Source: an uncultured Gammaproteobacteria bacterium | Lineage (GTDB): Bacteria > Patescibacteriota > Microgenomatia > Levybacterales > UBA12049 | NCBI GenBank assembly: GCA_964635045.1 | Contig: CAZWMJ010000003.1 | Location: 12,011 to 76,010 of the forward strand | DNA: 64,000 bases | Reading direction: 5' to 3' | In this document: positions 1,408-41,470 of the stretch, one piece after another | Layout: every line of letters starts with the position of its first letter | Position numbering within the stretch: position 1 is the stretch's first letter | The notes under the pieces: model-generated | What the model was told of the DNA's origin: nothing | The model's database searches: none | The model's input: only the letters and a program-made list of their open reading frames with translations | Position numbers and translations under genes: made by a program

Positions 1408-1876
1408 TTTTTAATTGTACAACAAAAGTTTTTTCTTATCCATCCCGCGTTTATCGAATGGGCCACGGCCTTGAGTTTACCGAATGGGCTGGATTTTTTA
1501 GAAGCGGTCGAATATAATAGTAAATAGCAATCAATGTTTGAGTCAATAAAACAAATTTCTATACTTATTTCAAAAACTGACAAAATTTGGTTAATCCCAA
1601 TTTTACTTTTGCTTGTAATCATTGTGTTTTTAATTATAAGCGCGCAGATTACTCCCGTTCCAATATTTCTATACCCAATTATATGAGAAATACTATCCGC
1701 TGGATGAATCTGCTCTTTGTGTTAATCCTCTTGATTTTTTTTTACTTTGTTGTTGTCGGAATATCTTCAATAATTTACAGAATAGTAACTAATAGAAAAA
1801 ACAGGGAAAGCACTTCATACTGGAAAAACGCGAAAAAACAGATATTCAATAAAAAATATTTTGAATTTACCTACTG

Positions 1877-3565
1877 ATGTACATTTTAGGAATTTCTGCT
1901 TTTTACCATGATAGCGCTGCAGCGTTAATAAAAGATGGCCAAGTGATCTTTGCAGTAGAAGAAGAACGCTTTACAAGAATAAAACACGACAATGTGTTCC
2001 CTCTTCAGGCAATTAAAGCCTGTCTTTCGTACAAAAACCTATCGATTAATGACATTGCTTATATTGCTTATTATGAAAAACCGCTTCTCAAATTTGAAAG
2101 AATCCTGCAAACGTTTGTAGAAACGTATCCTTTTTCTCTCAAATTGTTCTTAAAATCGATCCCTGAATGGATTGGTGAGAAAATTAAAGTACAGCATATA
2201 CTTAGAAAAAAAGTTGGCTACAAAGGAAAGGTGTTTTTTATACCGCATCATTTATCCCATGCAGCTGCAGCCTTTTACTCCTCGCCTTTCAAGGAATCGG
2301 CAATTATTACAATTGATGCTATAGGTGAATATCAAACTACCGCCTTATGGCAAGCTAAAAATAATGACATCATGCTTCTTAAATCAATGAGCTTTCCCCA
2401 TTCCCTAGGTCTTCTATATTCAACCTTTACGGCGTTTTTGGGTTTTCGAGTTAACGAAGATGAGTATAAAGTAATGGGGCTTTCTGCTTATGGTAAGGCT
2501 ACATACAAAGATAAAATGCATCGAATCATTAATATGAAAAATGATGGAAGTTTTCATCTCGATATGAAGTATTTTTCGTTTCGGGAAAGCTTCCAAATGT
2601 GGAGCAAAAAATTTGAAAAATTATTTGGTAGACCTCGAAAACCCGATGATATAATCAGCCAGCGAGACAAAAATCTTGCAGCAAGCATTCAACAAGCAAT
2701 AGAAGAAGTTTATTTCAAAATTCTCAATTATCTTTATGGTTTAACCAAATCTCAAAATCTATGCATGGGCGGCGGTGTTGCGCTCAACGCATTAGTAAAC
2801 GGCAAAATATACAAAAAGACCCTATTTAAACATGTGTATGTTTTTGGTGCAGCTGGAGACAGTGGAGGAGCAATTGGTGCTGGGCTTTTTACATACCATA
2901 GTATTTTGGGATACACCAAGAGAATACAAATAAACAATTTATATTTTGGTTCTTCATATGGCAATGATGAAATTGAAGCTATTTTCAGAAATTATAACAT
3001 TCGATATCAAAGAATCGATAACGAAGATGAGCTTTTGGATAAGGTGGTTTCGTTACTGAGTCACGGAAATATACTTGGGTGGTTTCAAGGTCGGATGGAA
3101 TTTGGACCGCGAGCTCTCGGTGCTCGATCAATTATAGCCAAACCAAACCCGCGTTTTATGAAAGATAAAGTAAACAAGATAAAAATACGGGAGCTTTTCC
3201 GACCGTTTGCCGGTTCTATTCTGCAAGAGAACGTACATGAATACTTTGATGTCCCTGAAAAATATCATTCCTCGCCTTTTATGACTTTTTGCTTTCCAGT
3301 AAAGAAAGAAAAATCTGTACAATTAGCAGCTCTTGTACATAGAGACAGAACTTGCAGGATTCAGACAGTAACTAATGAAAATGGCCGATATTACAGACTA
3401 ATCAAAAAATTTTATGAACGTACTGGTATTGCCTGCATCCTAAATACCAGCTTTAATCTTAAGGGAGAGCCAATTGTAGAAAATCCAGAACAAGCTATTG
3501 AAGATTTCTTAAAAACTGATATAGATAACCTCGTTATTGGTAATTTAGTTGCTCAAAAACGTTAA
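1877..3565 (+). CDS. Carbamoyltransferase, NodU/CmcH/TobZ family
   Basis: The N-terminus MYILGISAFYHDSAAALIKDGQVIFAVEEERFTRIKHD is the typical Kae1/YgjD-like carbamoyltransferase start. Length 562 aa; HHLSHAAAAFYSSPF motif present. Confidence 0.85.
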   Translation: MYILGISAFYHDSAAALIKDGQVIFAVEEERFTRIKHDNVFPLQAIKACLSYKNLSINDIAYIAYYEKPLLKFERILQTFVETYPFSLKLFLKSIPEWIGEKIKVQHILRKKVGYKGKVFFIPHHLSHAAAAFYSSPFKESAIITIDAIGEYQTTALWQAKNNDIMLLKSMSFPHSLGLLYSTFTAFLGFRVNEDEYKVMGLSAYGKATYKDKMHRIINMKNDGSFHLDMKYFSFRESFQMWSKKFEKLFGRPRKPDDIISQRDKNLAASIQQAIEEVYFKILNYLYGLTKSQNLCMGGGVALNALVNGKIYKKTLFKHVYVFGAAGDSGGAIGAGLFTYHSILGYTKRIQINNLYFGSSYGNDEIEAIFRNYNIRYQRIDNEDELLDKVVSLLSHGNILGWFQGRMEFGPRALGARSIIAKPNPRFMKDKVNKIKIRELFRPFAGSILQENVHEYFDVPEKYHSSPFMTFCFPVKKEKSVQLAALVHRDRTCRIQTVTNENGRYYRLIKKFYERTGIACILNTSFNLKGEPIVENPEQAIEDFLKTDIDNLVIGNLVAQKR

Positions 3566-16797: not shown

Positions 16798-18597
16798 ATG
16801 AGAATAAAAGAAGAATTACAACGGGTAATTAAGCAGATTGTAAGCGATCTGGGGGTGGAGGGGATAGAGCCGGTGATGGAGACGCCGGCTGTGCCGTCAC
16901 ATGGAGACTATTCGACAAATATTGCTATGGCAATATTCTCTAATTCAAAATTCAAAATTCAAAATTCAAAACTACAAGTCAAAACTCAAAAATATAAAAG
17001 TCCACTAGAGCTTGCCGAAGCCATTGCCGAATTGCTTAATACTAAATACCAAATACCAAATACTGACCTCATTGAGGCGGTCGCGCCCGGTTTTATCAAT
17101 TTCCATCTCTCCAAAGACTATTTGGTCGGTCGATTAAATGATCCGCTGTCTGAAAAAGAAAAGTTTGGGCAAACCGCTAGATTAAAAGATAAAAGTATCA
17201 TTGTAGAATTTACCGATCCAAATCCATTCAAAGAGTTCCATATTGGACATCTTTACAGCAATGTTGTGGGTGAGTCTTTATGCCGGCTTTTGGAAGCAAA
17301 TGGAGCGCGGGTTATGCGGGCAAACTATCAGGGAGATGTGGGGATGCACGTTGCAAAAGCCCTTTATGGGCTTTTGCAAAACTTAGAACTTAGAACTCCC
17401 CACTTCGCTAAAGCTTCGCGGGGCAAGCAGAACTCAGAACTGGATAAGAAACCACTCGATGAACGGGCAAAACTTTTGGGCGAGGCGTATGCGTTGGGAG
17501 CAAAAGCTTACGAGGGAGATGAGACGGCCAAAAAAGAGATAAACGAGCTCAACAAAAAAATTTACCAGAAAGAGCCGGAGATAATGGATCTTTATGAAAA
17601 GGGGAGGCAGTGGAGTTTGGATTATTTTGAAACTATTTACAAGCGTTTGGGAACTAAGTTTGATTTCTATTATTTTGAGAGTAAGGTGGGAGAGATTGGC
17701 TTAAAACTGGTCAAACAGTATGTCAGTGAAGGAATTTTTGAGGAAAGCGAGGGGGCGGTGGTTTTTCCGGGCAAACAATTTGGTCTTCATACCAGAGTTT
17801 TTATTAACTCCCAGGGATTTCCGACCTATGAGGCAAAAGAGCTTGGGCTTGCTCCCACCAAATATGAGGATTTTCCCTACGATCAATCTATTATCGTCAC
17901 CGGTAATGAGATTATTGAATACTTCAAGGTGCTGATGGCGGCTCTTGCCAAGATTCGGCCCGACTTGGCTTTGAAAACCAAACATATTCCTCATGGCATG
18001 GTGCGGCTTAAGCAGGGGAAGATGAGTAGCAGAACCGGCGATGTGGTGACAGGGCAGTGGCTGTTGGATGAGACTAAAGGAAAAATAAAAGAGCGGTTTT
18101 CGGAAATTAAGGATGAGGTGGCAGAGCAGGTGGCGGTGGGAGCGGTTAAGTACGCTCTGTTAAAAAGCGGTTTGGGCAGAGACATCGTTTTTGATTTTGA
18201 AGAATCAATCAATTTAGAAGGCAACAGCGGGCCGTATTTGCAGTATACGTACGCTCGTACACGTAGTGTACTCGCAAAATCTAGAATTCAGAATTCAGAA
18301 TTCAGAATTAGCCTCGCAAGGTCTCACCTTGCGAGGCTAGAAGTTGAGGAATTAGTTCTTCTTCGTCTGCTTCATAGATTTCCGGAAGTAGTGGGGGAGG
18401 CGGCGGAGAAATTTACTCCCAATTTTTTGTGCAATTATCTTTTTAATTTAGCCCAAGCCTTTAATCTCTTTTACCAAAAACACCAAATTATCGGCAGTCA
18501 ACAAGAGGCTTTTCGTTTATCCCTCACTCGTGCTATCGGCCAAACTCTCAAAGAAGGATTAGATCTTTTGGGGATTGTCGCCCCCCAGAGAATGTGA
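16798..18597 (+). CDS. argS: Arginyl-tRNA synthetase
   Basis: Class-I HIGH motif FHIGHLYSNVVGESL; KMSSRTGD (KMSK-type) motif; DALR anticodon-binding C-terminus. Start moved to the ATG at 16798 just after the upstream stop. Carries several in-frame heptamer tracts and a 13-bp palindrome. Confidence 0.9.
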   Translation: MRIKEELQRVIKQIVSDLGVEGIEPVMETPAVPSHGDYSTNIAMAIFSNSKFKIQNSKLQVKTQKYKSPLELAEAIAELLNTKYQIPNTDLIEAVAPGFINFHLSKDYLVGRLNDPLSEKEKFGQTARLKDKSIIVEFTDPNPFKEFHIGHLYSNVVGESLCRLLEANGARVMRANYQGDVGMHVAKALYGLLQNLELRTPHFAKASRGKQNSELDKKPLDERAKLLGEAYALGAKAYEGDETAKKEINELNKKIYQKEPEIMDLYEKGRQWSLDYFETIYKRLGTKFDFYYFESKVGEIGLKLVKQYVSEGIFEESEGAVVFPGKQFGLHTRVFINSQGFPTYEAKELGLAPTKYEDFPYDQSIIVTGNEIIEYFKVLMAALAKIRPDLALKTKHIPHGMVRLKQGKMSSRTGDVVTGQWLLDETKGKIKERFSEIKDEVAEQVAVGAVKYALLKSGLGRDIVFDFEESINLEGNSGPYLQYTYARTRSVLAKSRIQNSEFRISLARSHLARLEVEELVLLRLLHRFPEVVGEAAEKFTPNFLCNYLFNLAQAFNLFYQKHQIIGSQQEAFRLSLTRAIGQTLKEGLDLLGIVAPQRM

Positions 18598-26437: not shown

Positions 26438-26569
26438 CTATATTATACTTAATCAAAATGCTTATTGCAAGATAAAAGATGTGAGGATATAATCAAGATA
26501 GTATAAGGCTAACAAGCATTTTTGATAGAGAAGATAGATATTTTGATATAGATATTGATTTAATCGCGT

Positions 26570-35927: not shown

Positions 35928-36473
35928 TTAACTGATGGCTGAAGGCTGATTACTAGATGCTTTCTTATTTTCAATTATCTTTAGCGTCATCACAAATTTC
36001 TGTAGATTCCAACTCAATGCTCTGTGCAAGCTATAAATGGGCGCTTTCAATCCGCCCACCAACTGAGCAAGCAAGACCTCGCGGGCGGGGAGAGCGGATA
36101 ATTTTAGCAGTTGATCAGCCGTTAGCGCTTGACCCTCCACAATGCCAAATTTAATAACAGGCAGTTTGAGAGTTTTTATTGTCTTGGCAAGCGCTTTTAG
36201 GGGAGCGATAATGTCATTGTAGGCGAACAATGTTGCCGTCGGCCCGTCTAGCGAACTTCCAATTTCCAATTTCCAATTTCCAATTTCCAATGCGCGTTTA
36301 AGTAGAGTATTCTTCGTTACAACGATCTCGGCATCAACAGCCTTGACCATCTTTTTAAGCTCCTCGAGCTGTTTATGAGTCAGGCCCTGATAATCGGCAA
36401 AAACCAAACTTTTGGCGCGGCCGACCTTATCTTTAAGTTTAGCAACAATATCAATTTTCTTCTGACTAGCCAT
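35928..36473 (-). CDS. rplJ: Ribosomal protein L10
   Basis: L10 fold residues upstream of rplL. Contains the in-frame (TTCCAAT)n insertion encoding EIGNWKLEIG (36256-36292). Confidence 0.85.
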   Translation of the reverse strand: MASQKKIDIVAKLKDKVGRAKSLVFADYQGLTHKQLEELKKMVKAVDAEIVVTKNTLLKRALEIGNWKLEIGSSLDGPTATLFAYNDIIAPLKALAKTIKTLKLPVIKFGIVEGQALTADQLLKLSALPAREVLLAQLVGGLKAPIYSLHRALSWNLQKFVMTLKIIENKKASSNQPSAIS

Positions 36474-36479
36474 AATAGT

Positions 36480-36640
36480 AAATTAAAAGTTAAAAGTTCA
36501 AAGTTAAAAATTAAAAAAAACACTCCGAAGAGTGCGCAAAACTTGCTTCTCCTCGGTAGGCTTTATTCCTTTTGGGATCCTACTGTCTCAGGTTTGTCAC
36601 GTTTGACGTGATTTATTAAAGTTTACCACAGAGGGGAGAG
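36480..36640 (-). promoter_or_regulatory. rplJ upstream leader region with heptamer repeats and a CACGTTTGACGTG hairpin
   Basis: aattaaaagttaaaagttcaaagttaaaaattaaaaaaaa tract, then gtcacgtttgacgtgat (36597-36611). Location corresponds to the L10 autoregulatory leader in other bacteria; its structure is not verified here. Confidence 0.3.
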
Positions 36641-36645
36641 AGCTG

Positions 36646-37008
36646 TCAAGAAGAATTTTTCAGAGAAAGCATATTGCCCATGTTAAGCTGACCTCGTATT
36701 TCATTTTGTCTTCTAAGAGCATCTCCGGGCTGTTCGCCCGTTGGAGGGCAAAGCGCCGCCAAAAGCGCATCAAGAGTTCCAATTGAAAGTCCTACTGTTA
36801 TTCTTCCTACAGAAAGAGCGGCTTTGTGTTGATTTGGACAATCTTCATCCGGTCCACGAAGACTGGCGCTTTTTCCGGGGACTAAAAATAATTCTAGAAA
36901 ATCAGTTAAACCAGTTTGGTCAATTTGTTTTAGTGCAGCGAGATGATGAGGCGTAACATATAGCATCCCTGGATTTTGTGATCTTGGGGCCTCTATTGCA
37001 GCCGACAT
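36646..37008 (-). CDS. Hypothetical protein (GC-rich insert between rplA and rplJ)
   Basis: 120-aa ORF with no motifs. Composition differs from neighbours. Confidence 0.3.
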   Translation of the reverse strand: MSAAIEAPRSQNPGMLYVTPHHLAALKQIDQTGLTDFLELFLVPGKSASLRGPDEDCPNQHKAALSVGRITVGLSIGTLDALLAALCPPTGEQPGDALRRQNEIRGQLNMGNMLSLKNSS

Positions 37009-37034
37009 AAATTATATTAAGTATATTATGGTAT

Positions 37035-37559
37035 TTATATTAAATCAAGATGTCGTTTTGGCCTCTGTCTAGCTTGAGGCTTGATTTTAACAGAGTAACC
37101 GTCTGTTAATAAATTTGTTGCAGTTTGTATATGGTTTGATGGATTCTTTTGTTGACTGTCTTCGGGGAAGCAAATCGCCAGAAAGACAGTGATCGCTCCT
37201 AAATCATACAAGGTGGATACAGCTTCTCCGCGGCCATCCGTTGCGACTATACAAGTAGGTTTATGCTTGGGATTTTTCAAGCCGGCGGGATAGACAATAG
37301 GGATAAATCTAACCTCTCTTGTATTAGTTACTGCGGAAGCAAAAGCTACTAATAGCCATTTATGAGTTGAAGCTTGTCGAGCTAATTCCGAATCGGGATT
37401 AAGACCTAATCTTTCTGCGACAGAATCTTTTTTTTCTAAGGTTGTTAGACCGGTTAGTCCTTTAAGAGTAATTTCAGACACAGTAAGAGATGCCGGTCTT
37501 GGCGAATCCGTATGAAACGGAGAACGTCTTATTTCATCAATTTCTCCTAAAGCAGTCAT
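37035..37559 (-). CDS. Hypothetical protein (GC-rich insert between rplA and rplJ)
   Basis: 174-aa ORF with no motifs. Confidence 0.3.
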   Translation of the reverse strand: MTALGEIDEIRRSPFHTDSPRPASLTVSEITLKGLTGLTTLEKKDSVAERLGLNPDSELARQASTHKWLLVAFASAVTNTREVRFIPIVYPAGLKNPKHKPTCIVATDGRGEAVSTLYDLGAITVFLAICFPEDSQQKNPSNHIQTATNLLTDGYSVKIKPQARQRPKRHLDLI

Positions 37560-37760
37560 AGTGACGGGAATAATACCACATATTGTGTCTGATTACAAAT
37601 AGAGTAAGGCTAGCTTAGAGAGGAAATGTCCAGCTTTATTCCCGGGGACCCCACACAATGCTTCCTTGCTCCCATGGTCCTACGTCCATGCGGGACGTCA
37701 AACGTCCCAGCCACGTTTGACTGTGGCGTCGCAAGAGCGCATATGCGGGGGCAAGCATGG

Positions 37761-38657
37761 TTAGGATAATGTTGAAAAATCTATTCTTATTCCAGGAGAC
37801 ATAGTACTTTTTAGTGTTACGCTTTTGATTTTCCCGTTGCCGATGGCTGATAGAACAGCTTGAATGTTGTCTGTCAACTGGTTATCCGTCATGGATAGTT
37901 TGCCCACCGATAGATGGATGATAGGAGCTGTTTCTGTTTTGAAGCGAAGCTGATTGCCTTTCGATAAGCTCAGGGCAAGTTTCCCCGGATCATTGGTGAT
38001 GGTGCCGTTTTTGGGATTGGGCATGAGCCCTCTGGGGCCCAAGATTTTGGCCACTTTGGCTAATTTCGCCATCATGTCCGGCGCGGCAAGGAGCACATCA
38101 AAATCAATCTTGTTTTTTTCAATTTTACCGATTAACTCATCCGTAGCAATCGCCACTCTAATTTGTTTGCCGGTGCCATGGGGAAGATTTACATTGCCGG
38201 AAAGACCTTTTTCTGTGGTATTAACATGCAGTTCAACCGTGCCGTCAATCCGCCAGCTGGCGGATACCTTCCTTAAAAGCTCAAGTGCTTCGGCGAGAGG
38301 ATAGCGTTTAGTTCGGTCAACTGCCACCAATGCCTGTTTGTAGCGGCGGCCTCGCTCACGGGGATGGGTATCACGAGGGGTACGGGTATCACGAGTATCA
38401 CGGGGAATTTCTCCCTGTGGTACCTGTGGTACTTTTTCACCCTGTGATACCTCTATTTTGGCCTGCCCGCCAGTTGCTTCGCCGTCAGGCGATGGCAGGC
38501 GGGCCAGCTCTTCCTCGCTTGGTCCGACAGCCACCACTCTCTCTCCGCCATGAGCGCCTTTGACCAATTTTTTAGCCTCTTTTCTTTTTTTATCCTCTTT
38601 TTTTTGTTCTTTCTCGGCTTCTTCAATGCCGAGAGTCTTAACACGAATTTTTCCCAT
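37761..38657 (-). CDS. rplA: Ribosomal protein L1 with ~100-aa Lys/Pro/Arg-rich N-terminal extension
   Basis: Conserved L1 core (YPLAEALELL...GNVNLPHGTGK...LGPRGLMPNPK). The extension (38340-38657) contains the PRDTRDTRTPRDTHP repeat and is GC-rich. Confidence 0.8.
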   Translation of the reverse strand: MGKIRVKTLGIEEAEKEQKKEDKKRKEAKKLVKGAHGGERVVAVGPSEEELARLPSPDGEATGGQAKIEVSQGEKVPQVPQGEIPRDTRDTRTPRDTHPRERGRRYKQALVAVDRTKRYPLAEALELLRKVSASWRIDGTVELHVNTTEKGLSGNVNLPHGTGKQIRVAIATDELIGKIEKNKIDFDVLLAAPDMMAKLAKVAKILGPRGLMPNPKNGTITNDPGKLALSLSKGNQLRFKTETAPIIHLSVGKLSMTDNQLTDNIQAVLSAIGNGKIKSVTLKSTMSPGIRIDFSTLS

Positions 38658-39079
38658 TACGCTACCTCCACTCCCATCGATCTGGCTACTCCGCCAACTA
38701 TTTTTGATGCAGCGTTAAGGTCATCGGTATTCAAATCTTCCATTTTGGCTTTGGCGATTTCCTCAACTTGAGCTTTGGTTAAACTTCCGACTGTTTCCTT
38801 GCCCGGCTTTTGGGCGCCCTTTTCTTTCATTAGCGCTTTTTTGATCATCTCGGCAACCGGAGGTTTTTTGGTGATGAAAGAAAAAGTGCGATCCACGTAA
38901 ACAGTGATGATTACCGGAATAATGGTGCCTTTGGCCTCCGCTGTTTTTTCGTTGAAAGCCTTGACAAATTCCATGATGGGCAATCCATGCTGTCCCAGAG
39001 CCGGACCAACCGGCGGCGCGGGAGTAGCCTCTCCAGCGGGGATGTTTAGTTTAATTAAAGTTTTAATTTTCTTAGCCAT
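38657..39079 (-). CDS. rplK: Ribosomal protein L11
   Basis: [43 protein letters not shown]. Confidence 0.9.
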
Positions 39080-39089
39080 AATACTTCTA

Positions 39090-39205
39090 GACGATAGAAG
39101 ATAGAAAATAGAGGGTAGTTTTTTGATGCTGGAAGGTTGAAGGTAGATTTCTTGTTATCTAACTTCCATCCTCTATATTCAAAATACTATCTTCTACCAT
39201 CTATC
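39090..39205. repeat. Imperfect long inverted repeat at the boundary of the dnaA-like insertion
   Basis: atagaagatag...atagagggtag on the left, against ctctat...ctatcttctacc on the right, plus ggaagg/ccttcc sub-palindromes. Confidence 0.4.
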
Positions 39206-39268
39206 ATCTACCGTCAAAGTTATCTATTGATTTTAGCATAAAAGGGGAAAGTTATGCAATGAGGATAG

Positions 39269-40390
39269 ATGTTAAGAGAAAAATTTATATTGCAGGAGTA
39301 TAATTGCGATATGAGAGAGCGTGAACATAGAAGGAGACGGGAGATAATTGGACTACCTCTTTCTTCCCGATACACATTTGGAAATTTTGTGGTAGGAGAC
39401 GGTAATCGTGAAGCATCCAGCGCAGCGTTGGAGGTGGCCAGACAGCCAGTCTTTGGCTATAATCCACTCGTTTTTTATGGTGGCGTAGGCATGGGTAAAA
39501 CTCATTTACTTGAGGCTATTGGTAATTACGTTTGCGATCAAGGCGGACAGGTCTTTTACGTAAATGCTGCACAGCCGGAAGCACTGATGGATTTAATTCA
39601 TCAAAGAAGGTCTGCTCATAAATCAATTCGTCAAGCGCGAGTGGTGCTTATTGATGAAGCGCAATTATTTCCAAAAGACAGAGTGATTCGACAAGGTTTG
39701 AGAACCCTAGTCAATAATTTGAATGAGCGACTTGTTCAGTTGGTTTTTGCGGCTGATCGGGGCTCGCAGTTTACAGTATCTTTAGAAAATCCTTCCGGAG
39801 ATCGTTTAAGAGAGAGCGGGGGATTAGTTGTCCGGATTAGACCGCCCGATTTATCAACGCGCATTACTATTTTAGAAAAGAAGGCAGATGAGAAACAGAT
39901 GAAGATCGCTCCGTCGCTTCCAGAAGTTTTTGATTATCTTGCCCGTCGATTTACCGGTAGTATTCGTGAGTTGGAAAGGGGATTAGAGCAAGTTGTAGTT
40001 TATGCGGCAACTCATAATGAGCTTCTTACTCTTGAGACGGCTGTAGCTGCCGTTGAGGAGTTTTTTCAACGATCAAGGCTCACGGCTGAAAGTATTTTGG
40101 CGGCAGTTGCAGAAAAGTATGGCATATCAAGAGAAGCTATGACCACTCATGGACGTGGTGATCCGCAAATTCTTCAAGCGCGTCATGTAGCAATGTATCT
40201 ATTAAGCATAGATACAGAACTCTCACTTGCGGAAATTGGTGAATTACTAGGCGGATTCGAATATTCCACAGTTATCAACGCTTGCGCAAGAATTAGGGAC
40301 GAGCTTGATGCCAATTCAACCTTGAGCAGATGGATTGGCGATATTCGTGGAACCCATGGAGTAAAACTAGATAAAAGTTTATCAGCGTAG
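39269..40390 (+). CDS. DnaA-like AAA+ protein (domains III-IV only)
   Basis: YNPLVFYGGVGMGKTHLL Walker A, VVLIDEAQLF Walker B, C-terminal DnaA domain-IV-like HTH region (ILQARHVAMYLLSI...YSTVINACARI). Lacks DnaA domains I-II. GC-rich. Confidence 0.55.
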   Translation: MLREKFILQEYNCDMREREHRRRREIIGLPLSSRYTFGNFVVGDGNREASSAALEVARQPVFGYNPLVFYGGVGMGKTHLLEAIGNYVCDQGGQVFYVNAAQPEALMDLIHQRRSAHKSIRQARVVLIDEAQLFPKDRVIRQGLRTLVNNLNERLVQLVFAADRGSQFTVSLENPSGDRLRESGGLVVRIRPPDLSTRITILEKKADEKQMKIAPSLPEVFDYLARRFTGSIRELERGLEQVVVYAATHNELLTLETAVAAVEEFFQRSRLTAESILAAVAEKYGISREAMTTHGRGDPQILQARHVAMYLLSIDTELSLAEIGELLGGFEYSTVINACARIRDELDANSTLSRWIGDIRGTHGVKLDKSLSA

Positions 40391-40394
40391 AAAA

Positions 40395-40673
40395 TTATGG
40401 CTTTGGTTTTATTTCTTGTTCAGATTTCAAAAGCATATGAGTGACGACACAAACTGTCCCTGCTGTCATAAAGATTCCATAAGCCGCATAGAAGTCTCCT
40501 GTAGGTCCATTCAACATTCTTTCCTGCATTTTCACTAAGGAAGCAATAGCTGTACCATCTACGGCAGCTCTTGTTACGGTTTCCTTCCAAGAAGAGTTTT
40601 TGGGGACTACTAAATCCCAGCCTTTTAAAATCGCAGCACTAGTTCTAGTAAATGCTGGTTTTAATCTTTCCAT
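40395..40673 (-). CDS. Hypothetical small protein
   Basis: 92-aa ORF inside the same island. Confidence 0.25.
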   Translation of the reverse strand: MERLKPAFTRTSAAILKGWDLVVPKNSSWKETVTRAAVDGTAIASLVKMQERMLNGPTGDFYAAYGIFMTAGTVCVVTHMLLKSEQEIKPKP

Positions 40674-40688
40674 AAGTTTTCTAAGTTT

Positions 40689-41279
40689 CTACAGTTTGCT
40701 GACTTGGAGGAAGTCGAGCTCAACCGGGGTTTCGCGGCCGAAGATGGAAACCAGCACTTTGAGTTTGCCTTTTTTGTCATCGATTTCACTGATGGTTCCC
40801 AAAAAATCGGCAAAGGGGCCGTCCACAATTTTTACCGCTTCATTGACGGAGAAAGCGGTTTTGTAGAGCGGCTCTTCCACTTTCATAAATTTTTGGATTG
40901 CCTCCACTTCTTTATCGGAGATGGGAGTTGGTTTGTTGCCTACACCCACGAAAGCGGTTACTCCCTGGGTGGTTCGAACCAACAGCCATGTTTCATCATC
41001 CAAAATCATTTTTACCAACACGTAGCCGGGGAAAATTTTTTCTTTGACCGTGTCTTTTTTTCCCTGCGAAACTTTAATAGTATTTCTGGTGGGAACGATG
41101 ATGTCAAAGATTCTCTCGGTAAAGCCCAAGGTTTGTATTCTCTGCCATAGCTGTTTGGCAACTTTATCTTCGTGTCCCGAATAGGTATGCACGATATACC
41201 ATCGGCCGTCATTGGGTTTGGCATCTGCTTTCGCTGTTTCTTCTTTTGTTTGTTCAACCGGTATTATTTGTTTGTCCAT
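40689..41279 (-). CDS. nusG: Transcription antitermination factor NusG
   Basis: [21 protein letters not shown] domain and C-terminal KOW region ([19 protein letters not shown]). Confidence 0.85.
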
Positions 41280-41284
41280 ATTAT

Positions 41285-41470
41285 TTATTTTACTATTAAT
41301 TCCATTAATTTGGTAAAGATAAAATCAGCTCCCCCTAAAAAAAGACCAACTATCAAACTTGTCAAAATAACTACAATAGTCAGCCGTGTCACCTCGGCCC
41401 GTGTCGGCCAGGAAACCTTTTTCAGTTCATCCTGAGTTTCTTTTAAAAAAACAATTGGATTTTTTACCAC
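41285..41470 (-). CDS. secE: Preprotein translocase subunit SecE
   Basis: 61 aa. ...[36 protein letters not shown] is typical SecE. Immediately upstream of nusG. Confidence 0.7.

Follow-up and report, generated by a model that had tools for sequence, protein, structure and literature searches.

We examined the locus between the genes rplK and nusG in a stretch of 64,000 nucleotides (hereafter the window, meaning the whole of the DNA analyzed) from a Patescibacteria (Microgenomates-like) genome. The features of the locus, in window coordinates, were as follows.

38657–39079, minus strand: rplK (L11; Pfam Ribosomal_L11_N and Ribosomal_L11), the left flank of the insertion hotspot.
39066–40420: block shared at 100% identity by four independent Logan assemblies.
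39090–39215: palindrome of 126 bp, with arms of about eight degenerate heptamers (RRTAGAA) and termini GACGGTAG...CTACCGTC.
39228–39310, plus strand: conserved upstream region of the dnaA-like gene, from alignment with relative L005.
39269–40390, plus strand: ORF as called mechanically (373 aa), a longer form of the dnaA-like gene.
39311–40390, plus strand: dnaA-like gene, encoding a 359-aa DnaA-family AAA+ ATPase with domains III and IV only (Pfam and NCBIfam).
40395–40673, minus strand: orf92, an orphan ORF of 92 aa that converges on the dnaA-like gene and encodes one hydrophobic stretch.
40689–41279, minus strand: nusG (Pfam NusG and KOW), the right flank of the hotspot.

The sequence-only reading had described a short DnaA-like ORF on the strand opposite to the flanking rplK and nusG, and this gene is indeed present, with its start revised. 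Conservation places the start at the ATG at 39311, which corrects the length from 373 to 359 aa; the corresponding Met begins both an identical public protein (P0001) and an 80% identical relative (P0002). The reported lack of domains I and II was also borne out. Pfam detected Bac_DnaA (domain III, 3.4e-29) and Bac_DnaA_C (domain IV, 6.8e-17), and no DnaA_N (PF11638), which is domain I, for helicase and partner binding. Because an in-frame TAG stands immediately 5' of 39269 and the gap between rplK and the ORF is only 189 bp, there is no room for domains I and II. Against the DnaA equivalog model TIGR00362, the protein scored 247.2 bits (cut-off: 343.9), matching model positions 100–433 of 437. 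When positions 39200–39420 were aligned to L005, mean column identity was 89% from 39228 on, and similarity was lost to the left of 39228. A TATAAT read directly in the sequence (39299–39304) lies 6 nt 5' of the ATG, and this spacing makes a near-leaderless transcript possible. The convergent orf92 had no match in Pfam, NCBIfam, PHROGs, or PADLOC; it is absent in L005 and belongs to the insert in the window genome only. Its identity as a detached DnaA domain I was rejected for want of a DnaA_N match.

Compared with chromosomal DnaA, the window protein is homologous across domains III and IV (33–41% identity to many DnaAs) and has the common fold, whereas it lacks domains I and II, falls under the family cut-off, and has several invariant motifs replaced. 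Alignment with canonical motifs bore out the Walker A, Walker B, and sensor motifs recognized earlier, and the domain IV helix-turn-helix (HTH) is likewise retained: the AAA+ motifs read GGVGMGKTHLL (Walker A, consensus GxxGxGKTHL), VLIDEAQ (DE-type Walker B), and GSIRELE (sensor II arginine). The helix after Walker B, TQEEFFHTFN in canonical DnaA, reads IRQGLRTLVN, and the ISM region for single-strand DNA engagement, SExFTN in canonical DnaA, reads AAQPEALM; these positions are 85–100% conserved among the 27 canonical DnaAs compared. The sensor I serine of canonical DnaA is also replaced. Box VII (DRLRESGGL) has a 2-residue length difference, and HMMER and MAFFT disagree on which arginine occupies the finger position; the window protein has R as its candidate finger and P0002, under one of the two alignments, has G, within a loop of pLDDT <50. 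Domain IV retains the R399-equivalent and the AMYL helix, and canonical RDHTTV..H is represented by FEYSTV..N in the window protein and FDHSTV..H in P0002, such that the base-contacting residues are unstable even between the two known orthologues. The shifting domain IV contacts and arginine finger fit drift to loss of function as well as new function.

The AlphaFold model of the 359-aa protein (mean pLDDT: 81.9) had its best PDB match in Bacillus subtilis DnaA (8btg, E = 3e-21), with 1l8q and 2hcb among the others, as against E = 3e-9 for Hda. The N-terminal tail, REREHRRRREIIGLPL (candidate clamp-binding peptide: REIIGLPLSSRY), is conserved and contains IIGLPL without the glutamine of the clamp motif; the last L of its "LPL" aligns with the L of canonical DnaA "LNPKYTF".

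The protein is a near-orphan: among 15 billion proteins, we found one relative (80% identity), which likewise adjoins nusG. HMMER, run exhaustively against 1.84 billion representatives, returned one close cluster (605 bits), with the next match at no more than 205 bits (41% identity). A scan of genome collections with the protein alone recovered no relatives, and a metagenome scan for the family-specific peptide LIDEAQLFPKD recovered no matches. In plasmids and phages, tblastn found only chromosomal-type dnaA at ≤36% identity. PHROGs gave nothing specific (a weak DnaC-like match, 2e-9), nor did the PADLOC and IMG/VR scans (the latter empty), and the IstB model scored 46 bits (cut-off: 200). 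The insert contains no integrase or transposase. The window protein has no specific affinity to plasmid, phage, defense, or Hda proteins, and these searches lend no specific support to the suggested plasmid- or phage-derived initiator.

We then considered the position of the gene relative to a replication origin. Neither dnaN nor a second dnaA homologue was found within the 64-kb window, DnaA boxes were not enriched in it (21 matches vs. 16.4 expected), and cumulative GC skew climbed monotonically through it with no turn and, at this locus, no minimum. A search for DnaA-box-like 9-mers in 39080–39270, suggested earlier, found no boxes. Since dnaN, a DnaA-box cluster, and a GC-skew turn are all missing, the score is below the cut-off, and invariant motifs are lost, the locus is not the chromosomal dnaA/oriC. 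The gene is almost certainly not the real initiator of the chromosome, in agreement with the earlier view that it is not simply the chromosomal dnaA; that a canonical dnaA lies elsewhere in this genome is our assumption. Patescibacteria generally possess a canonical dnaA–dnaN pair (PMC12102498). P0004, the best full-length match, was discarded as a lead to the canonical DnaA of the host, as its relatives are Anaerolineae/Chloroflexi DnaAs from another lineage and other samples.

The insert splitting the normally adjacent nusG–rplK pair proved lineage-specific: relatives have the pair adjacent or carry other cargo between the two genes. An empty spacer of 30 bp separates the two genes in L011, and one of about 100 bp does so in L008. 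In L009 and L010, the spacer contains two small ORFs; L013 has a 662-aa orphan there, and L005 has the dnaA-like gene together with a 23S_rRNA_IVP gene. In the clade of the window genome, the nusG–rplK spacer is a hypervariable cargo site. The rplA–rplJ spacer showed no sequence conservation among relatives. In the window, neither terminal inverted repeats nor att-like direct repeats were found to bracket the insert.

Evolutionary rates separated the dnaA-like gene from its surroundings. Its dN/dS was 0.40 (CI: 0.28–0.56), 4-fold above that of the flanks (0.10; 0.07–0.13), and its dS was 0.28 (0.21–0.36) compared with 0.60 (0.50–0.72) in the flanks; the nusG genes of the window and L005 are 95% identical. 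Three of the four contigs carrying the identical block at 39066–40420 break at both of its ends, and the fourth runs left into a 19% divergent rplK. In L001, the insert showed 0 differences in 1,506 bp beside 40 differences in 196 bp of rplK (dS of about 1.15). Additionally, L005 has two degenerate nusG 3' ends, with codon choices matching the nusG end of another relative. The separate dN/dS and dS values, together with an identical 1.5-kb block beside divergent rplK in another sample, point to recent horizontal exchange of the insert between related genomes, as judged from short-read k-mer assemblies and about 200 bp of divergent flank; the L001 breakpoint would also arise if rplK had moved instead of the insert.

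The inverted repeats noted earlier at 39090–39205 are real and form the 126-bp palindrome, which lies on one side of the gene only; no inverted repeats flank both ends of the insert. The arms (39090–39148 and 39157–39215; 59 nt each) are 73% complementary and spaced 8 nt apart. Fold z-scores were −6.0 and −5.4, and no shuffled sequence folded equally well. The palindrome was rejected as an origin or island boundary and as a DnaA-box/DUE region: it has no DnaA box within 1 mismatch, it is not beside the dnaA-like gene in L005, and its family is dispersed. A homologue of 77% identity lies at L011 491–609, between rplK and rplA. In metagenomes, the arm pattern had at least 120 matches, among which were 100 full hairpins (80 distinct; median: 122 nt). 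The copies, up to three per 12-kb contig, are non-coding and mostly intergenic and stand beside many unrelated genes; they also recur before the same genes (e.g., mreB, radA, trxB, and rplL) in different contigs. The palindrome is one copy of a widespread dispersed repeat family of about 120 bp. In the region searched, Rfam recognized only the L10 leader, and the palindrome is in no Rfam family; we found no description of the family in the literature searched, to which it is apparently new. A sense-strand RNA leader (e.g., an L1-binding site) was also tried and rejected: two-sequence covariation gave no double changes, and among 33 oriented copies neither strand was favored, with 11 more stable as sense and 22 as antisense (G·U pairs: 150 vs. 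142).

Our preferred reading, to which we assign a probability of roughly 0.55, is that the dnaA-like gene encodes an accessory, horizontally exchanged DnaA paralogue and not the chromosomal initiator. Its recent transfer among related genomes would be most simply explained by homologous recombination via the conserved flanking genes. The protein retains an ATP-binding AAA+ core (Walker A, DE-type Walker B, sensor II arginine, and an arginine in box VII) and the domain IV HTH. Without domains I and II, it presumably cannot recruit the helicase or partner proteins as DnaA does, and the Walker-B-following helix and ISM residues, used by canonical DnaA on single-stranded DNA, are replaced. From what the protein keeps and lacks, its most likely mode would be ATP-dependent binding of double-stranded DNA as a regulator, rather than origin opening. 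Such a regulator may compete with or cap host DnaA at DnaA-box-like sites (e.g., TTATCCACA-type boxes), or act as a transcription factor. The palindrome would then be an unrelated copy of a dispersed, DNA-level heptamer repeat, and orf92 further orphan cargo.

An accessory paralogue has to be weighed against a gene that is simply decaying: a dnaA fragment, now without function, that was duplicated or acquired too recently to have lost its reading frame. Such decay would be in line with a dN/dS four times that of the neighbors, the loss of many residues invariant in canonical DnaA, DNA-contact residues that differ between orthologues, a very narrow distribution, and a low GC3 (0.33). However, dN/dS is clearly below 1 even at its upper confidence limit of 0.56, and across three lineages that differ by 13% in nucleotide sequence the ORF stays intact from a common start. 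Conservation extends to Walker A, Walker B, sensor II, the R399-equivalent, and the N-terminal tail, as well as to the upstream region with its −10 box, and we consider decay unlikely. It is scarcely credible that the short gene is the only DnaA of the organism, a minimized chromosomal initiator moved off dnaN. The window holds no other dnaA homologue, Patescibacteria genomes are reduced, and the AAA+ and HTH cores are still present, but the gene is missing at the same site in five relatives, and its 4-fold relaxed dN/dS and horizontal exchange are unexpected for an essential single-copy initiator. The lack of a DnaA-box cluster, a GC-skew turn, and dnaN at the locus, the lost initiator-invariant motifs, and a score of 247 bits against the equivalog cut-off of 343.9 also speak against it.

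Two further readings, both very improbable in our judgment, draw on known DnaA relatives. In one, the block of 1.35 kb descends from a plasmid or phage and survives as a relic or minimal replicon, whose iteron-type origin would be the palindrome and whose Rep would be the short DnaA. Plasmids can carry DnaA-like initiators, as in Rickettsia, and Rhodobacterales DnaA-like replicons are further plasmid-borne cases. The window protein resembles them as a DnaA homologue outside the chromosomal origin on mobile DNA, the 100%-identical block consists of the palindrome and the gene plus about 30 bp and nothing else, and the palindrome is AT-rich with about 16 short repeats. Nevertheless, members of the palindrome family stand next to unrelated housekeeping genes in at least 100 cases, with no such dnaA-like gene there, and L005 has the gene with no palindrome beside it. 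The insert, only 1.6 kb within a ribosomal gene cluster, has no integrase, relaxase, or terminal repeats at both ends and no partition or plasmid gene near it. The protein has no specific similarity to plasmid or phage proteins, being no closer to them than to chromosomal DnaA (≤36% identity), and lacks domain I for helicase recruitment. A relic replicon integrated into the chromosome, as raised by the sequence-only reading, is thus not specifically supported, with the palindrome being neither origin nor island end. In the other, the protein is a negative regulator like Hda/HdaA (TIGR03420), which inactivates DnaA: its N-terminal tail would bind the sliding clamp, and it would stimulate ATP hydrolysis by host DnaA. 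Like Hda, it is a DnaA-derived AAA+ protein that begins with a short tail just ahead of the AAA+ core. The tail resembles the Hda hexapeptide, QLSLPL, whose spacing to the (Y)TF motif is similar, and a box VII arginine is present. A negative-regulator role is conceivable. Conversely, it scored 72.3 bits against the TIGR03420 cut-off of 194.8, it retains domain IV, which Hda lacks, and its predicted fold is far nearer DnaA. The tail has no canonical QL[SK]LPL, as the key glutamine is missing and the "LPL" leucine has a counterpart in canonical DnaA. The Hda-like identity suggested earlier therefore found no specific support.

A bolder extension of the accessory-paralogue reading, which we regard as a long shot, is that the short DnaA, lacking domain I, serves as a mobile "anti-initiator" and passes from one Patescibacteria species to another by recombination into the conserved nusG–rplK spacer. 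It would occupy DnaA boxes or cap DnaA filaments, or use the sliding clamp via its IIGLPL tail in the manner of Hda, thereby throttling or timing chromosome replication. If true, replication control would gain a new class of factor that can be transferred horizontally. Patescibacteria (CPR) are tiny, often epibiotic cells whose replication control is essentially unknown, and we know of no initiation regulator in them. A short DnaA that keeps the ATPase and DNA-binding domains without the helicase-recruiting end, and that is passed between species, would be a natural candidate for a trans-acting initiation modulator; it is also a ready-made separation-of-function variant for the study of DnaA. 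In addition, even the highly conserved secE–nusG–rplK–rplA cluster can be a recombination hotspot, and flanks of such high conservation may provide homology arms for gene exchange across species.

The palindrome family invites comparison with known dispersed palindromic repeats, among them the Correia-like MITEs. Like REP/MITE-type repeats, it is short, non-coding, multi-copy, and mostly intergenic, with several copies per contig, and its termini hold GTAG and CGTC, the tags of two groups of REPs (PMC3733652). It differs in length (about 120 bp vs. 20–40 bp), in arms built of about eight degenerate heptamers, in having these motifs paired rather than as unpaired tags, in its recurrence at the same gene starts in different contigs, and in its absence from Rfam. 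By eye, no target-site duplications were obvious in the flanks; no accompanying transposase was noticed. That copies recur ahead of the same genes favors old or functional elements over transposition. Separately from the mobile anti-initiator, and as an equally long shot, the palindromes could be a phylum-wide cis-element bound by an unknown DNA-binding protein rather than selfish DNA. The palindrome result may matter more widely than the dnaA-like gene itself: in groundwater-type metagenomes, the repeat is abundant and directly precedes many housekeeping genes, and it will affect assembly, gene calling, and promoter/UTR interpretation in such genomes.

The insert that separates nusG from rplK carries a gene of the DnaA family on the strand opposite to both, as the sequence-only reading had described, and the locus is organized as follows.

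Features of the nusG–rplK locus and adjoining cluster (window coordinates)
36504-36610, minus strand: ribosomal protein L10 leader, RF00557 (40.9 bits; gathering score 44; E = 3e-4)
36646-37008, minus strand: orphan ORF in the rplA-rplJ spacer, no family match
37035-37559, minus strand: orphan ORF in the rplA-rplJ spacer, no family match
37761-38657, minus strand: rplA
38657-39079, minus strand: rplK
39269-40390, plus strand: dnaA-like ORF, between nusG/orf92 and rplK
40395-40673, minus strand: 92-aa orphan ORF (orf92)
40689-41279, minus strand: nusG
41285-41470, minus strand: secE

We found that the dnaA-like ORF matches Pfam Bac_DnaA (3.4e-29) and Bac_DnaA_C (6.8e-17), with no DnaA_N match, and scores below the cut-off of the DnaA equivalog TIGR00362 (247 vs. 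343.9 bits), aligning to model positions 100-433 of 437. Domains I-II, reported earlier as missing, are not hidden upstream, because a TAG codon immediately precedes 39269 and the gap to rplK is 189 bp. The 373-aa ORF described earlier opens at 39269, but this start does not hold: P0001 (an identical public protein, 359 aa) and P0002 (a relative encoded at locus L005, 351 aa) both have the Met at 39311 as their first residue. Conservation with L005 extends over the 83 bp 5' of this Met, including a TATAAT 6 nt ahead of the ATG. The shared start and the conserved upstream DNA indicate that the truncated form, which several assemblies recovered independently, is real. The GC3 of the gene (0.33) is low, yet inside the range of other window genes.

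In an alignment with 27 full-length DnaAs, the protein retained Walker A, a DE-type Walker B, the sensor II arginine, the R399-equivalent, and the AMYL helix, which bears out the AAA+ motifs recognized from sequence, whereas residues 85-100% conserved across canonical DnaA were replaced. The helix after Walker B changes from TQEEFFHTFN to IRQGLRTLVN, the SExFTN (ISM) region to AAQPEALM, and the sensor I serine to alanine, while the DNA-contact signature RDHTTV..H reads FEYSTV..N in the window protein and FDHSTV..H in P0002. Box VII differs in length by two residues, and two alignment methods placed the finger on different arginines.

Close homologs were scarce: a word-indexed search (5.8 billion protein clusters) and an exhaustive HMMER search (1.84 billion representatives) each returned one close cluster (605 bits), with P0002 (80% identity) as the sole close relative, followed after a gap by generic DnaAs (≤205 bits, ≤41% identity). 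The relatives of P0004, the best full-length match, are Anaerolineae/Chloroflexi DnaAs, and the best full-length matches are thus not host-specific. The host belongs to the Patescibacteria and is probably Microgenomates-like: among its NusG relatives is one from a 'Patescibacteria group bacterium' MAG, and those L1 relatives that carry a name are labelled 'Patescibacteria group' or 'Candidatus Microgenomates'. In addition, P0252, P0254, P0335, and P0339 (~650-700 aa; one annotated 'AAA family ATPase' from a Gemmatimonadota MAG) carry a DnaA-type domain III at the extreme N-terminus plus a second matched stretch, and represent another DnaA-derived class without domain I.

The insert has a history of its own. 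Between the window and L005, the dnaA-like gene had a dN/dS of 0.40 (95% bootstrap CI: 0.28-0.56) and a dS of 0.28 (0.21-0.36), vs. 0.10 (0.07-0.13) and 0.60 (0.50-0.72) for nusG, NTP-transferase, and PAP2 pooled; the gene is thus under purifying selection, relaxed about four-fold, and diverged more recently than its neighbors. In L001, a Logan contig (SRR12113384) sharing the insert, all 40 differences from the window are confined to 196 bp of rplK (mainly third-position; dS ~1.15; 63/70 residues identical), with none over the adjoining 1,506 bp, which span the palindrome, the gene, and part of orf92. Contigs from three more Logan assemblies are 100% identical to the window and end at 39066/39069 and 40420/40422, as expected from graph branch points at block edges. 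The simplest reading, drawn from only ~200 bp of divergent flank in k-mer assemblies, is that related genomes recently exchanged DNA through recombination in the conserved flanks, and either the insert or rplK may be the part that moved.

The nusG-rplK spacer acts as a hotspot for cargo. It is empty in L011 (30 bp) and L008 (~100 bp), holds two small same-strand ORFs in L009 and L010, a 662-aa orphan gene in L013 (4245-6233), and the dnaA-like gene plus a 23S_rRNA_IVP (four-helix-bundle) gene in L005, and carries the palindrome, the dnaA-like gene, and orf92 in the window. L005 also contains two degenerate tandem nusG 3' ends (1564-1697), each with a 14-15-nt hairpin-forming insertion, whose codon choices match the nusG end of L011/L013 and not that of L005 itself; these copies are probably footprints of recombination with relatives' DNA.

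The ~115-bp nested inverted repeats reported earlier do exist, as a single imperfect palindrome of 126 bp (39090-39215), whose arms comprise ~8 degenerate heptamers (RRTAGAA) with termini GACGGTAG...CTACCGTC. A copy with 77% identity lies between rplK and rplA in L011 (491-609) and, like the window copy, stops 10 nt ahead of a start codon. A degenerate 29-nt arm pattern, without chance matches in window shuffles, matched at least 120 metagenome stretches (L014-L133); 100 of those listed contain complete hairpins (80 distinct; median length 122 nt), several contigs among them hold more than one copy, and a few matches in gut metagenomes are simply arrays of heptamers that form no palindrome. 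On different contigs, copies repeatedly precede, by 7-60 nt, the start codons of mreB, radA, trxB, rplL, ndk, pnp, dinB, an EF-G-like gene, and a galU-like gene. The window itself holds, besides its one full copy, a decayed half-copy (26525-26560) ~10 nt ahead of the mreB start (26570); in L023, L039, and L094, a full copy precedes the mreB start by 17-18 nt. Since the family is dispersed beside many unrelated genes, and is absent next to the L005 gene, the palindrome is neither an origin nor the island boundary it had been taken for. Among 33 copies oriented by the adjacent gene, folding favored the sense strand in 11 and the antisense in 22, and G.U pairs were equal (150 vs. 142); this lack of strand bias favors a DNA-level element over an RNA leader on the sense strand. 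Rfam has no entry for the element, and a literature search found no description; of the kinds already described, REP/MITE-type repeats come closest, among them the GTAG- and CGTC-tagged REPs (PMC3733652). This family may be a more broadly useful result than the dnaA-like gene. Perfect or near-perfect 7-bp tandem repeats also occur at 36257-36291, 36483-36516, and 16943-16965, one of which (TTCCAAT x5) falls inside the rplJ coding sequence, and heptamer periodicity seems to recur in the source genome.

With its domain III-IV architecture, loss of initiator motifs, near-orphan distribution, hotspot site, and history apart from the flanks, the protein is an unusual but genuine variant of the DnaA family, encoded on an insert that was probably exchanged horizontally. 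For its function, we infer an ATP-dependent double-strand DNA-binding regulator, which might be a competitor or modulator of DnaA, or a transcription factor, and which would neither recruit helicase nor handle single-stranded DNA in the manner of canonical DnaA. The relaxed constraint could instead mark a decaying remnant, to which we give the most weight among the alternatives while considering it unlikely, as purifying selection is relaxed but real. A relic minimal replicon is improbable: the insert has no recombinase and no repeats at both ends, and the palindrome is not an origin. The searches also gave no specific similarity in favor of the plasmid- or phage-derived initiator proposed earlier: in 72,556 plasmids and 50,697 phage records, tblastn returned only chromosomal-type dnaA (≤36% identity), PHROGs gave only weak DnaC-like and clamp-loader matches, PADLOC gave nothing meaningful, and the IMG/VR scan was empty.

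Just as improbable as a relic replicon is an Hda-like clamp-dependent regulator, also suggested earlier. Hda membership fails by both score and architecture, and the AlphaFold model (mean pLDDT 81.9; AAA+ fold plus domain IV) fits B. subtilis and A. aeolicus DnaA (E = 3e-21 to 1e-14) much better than Hda (3e-9). The N-terminal tail REREHRRRREIIGLPL is conserved, but its likeness to the Hda clamp motif is only loose, and its final leucine aligns with the L of canonical DnaA LNPKYTF. That the gene is the sole chromosomal initiator deserves the least credence. Neither a second dnaA nor dnaN, the neighbor expected of an ordinary chromosomal dnaA, occurs in the 64-kb window; TTATCCACA-like DnaA boxes are at chance frequency (21 vs. 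16.4 expected), with none in 39080-39270, where the sequence-only reading would have sought them; and cumulative GC skew rises monotonically, without a minimum or turn at 39-40 kb. The locus is almost certainly not the chromosomal initiator locus. A published survey reports that virB4 commonly has canonical dnaA and dnaN as neighbors in most classes of Patescibacteria, Microgenomatia among them (PMC12102498).

Elsewhere in the ribosomal cluster, the rplA product L1 has a ~100-aa N-terminal extension rich in lysine/glutamate and PRDTRDT-type low-complexity repeats, and extensions of similar length occur in relatives (e.g., L008, L1 = 299 aa). The ~1.15-kb gap between rplA and the L10 leader/rplJ (36611-37760) contains solely two orphan ORFs; in relatives this spacer is long and unrelated in sequence, and L011 holds there a 681-aa orphan gene (1447-3492), which, like the L013 662-aa orphan, has no Pfam match, the two being mutually unrelated. 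This spacer looks like a second cargo hotspot. The L10 leader match is slightly under the gathering score, at the expected site upstream of rplJ.
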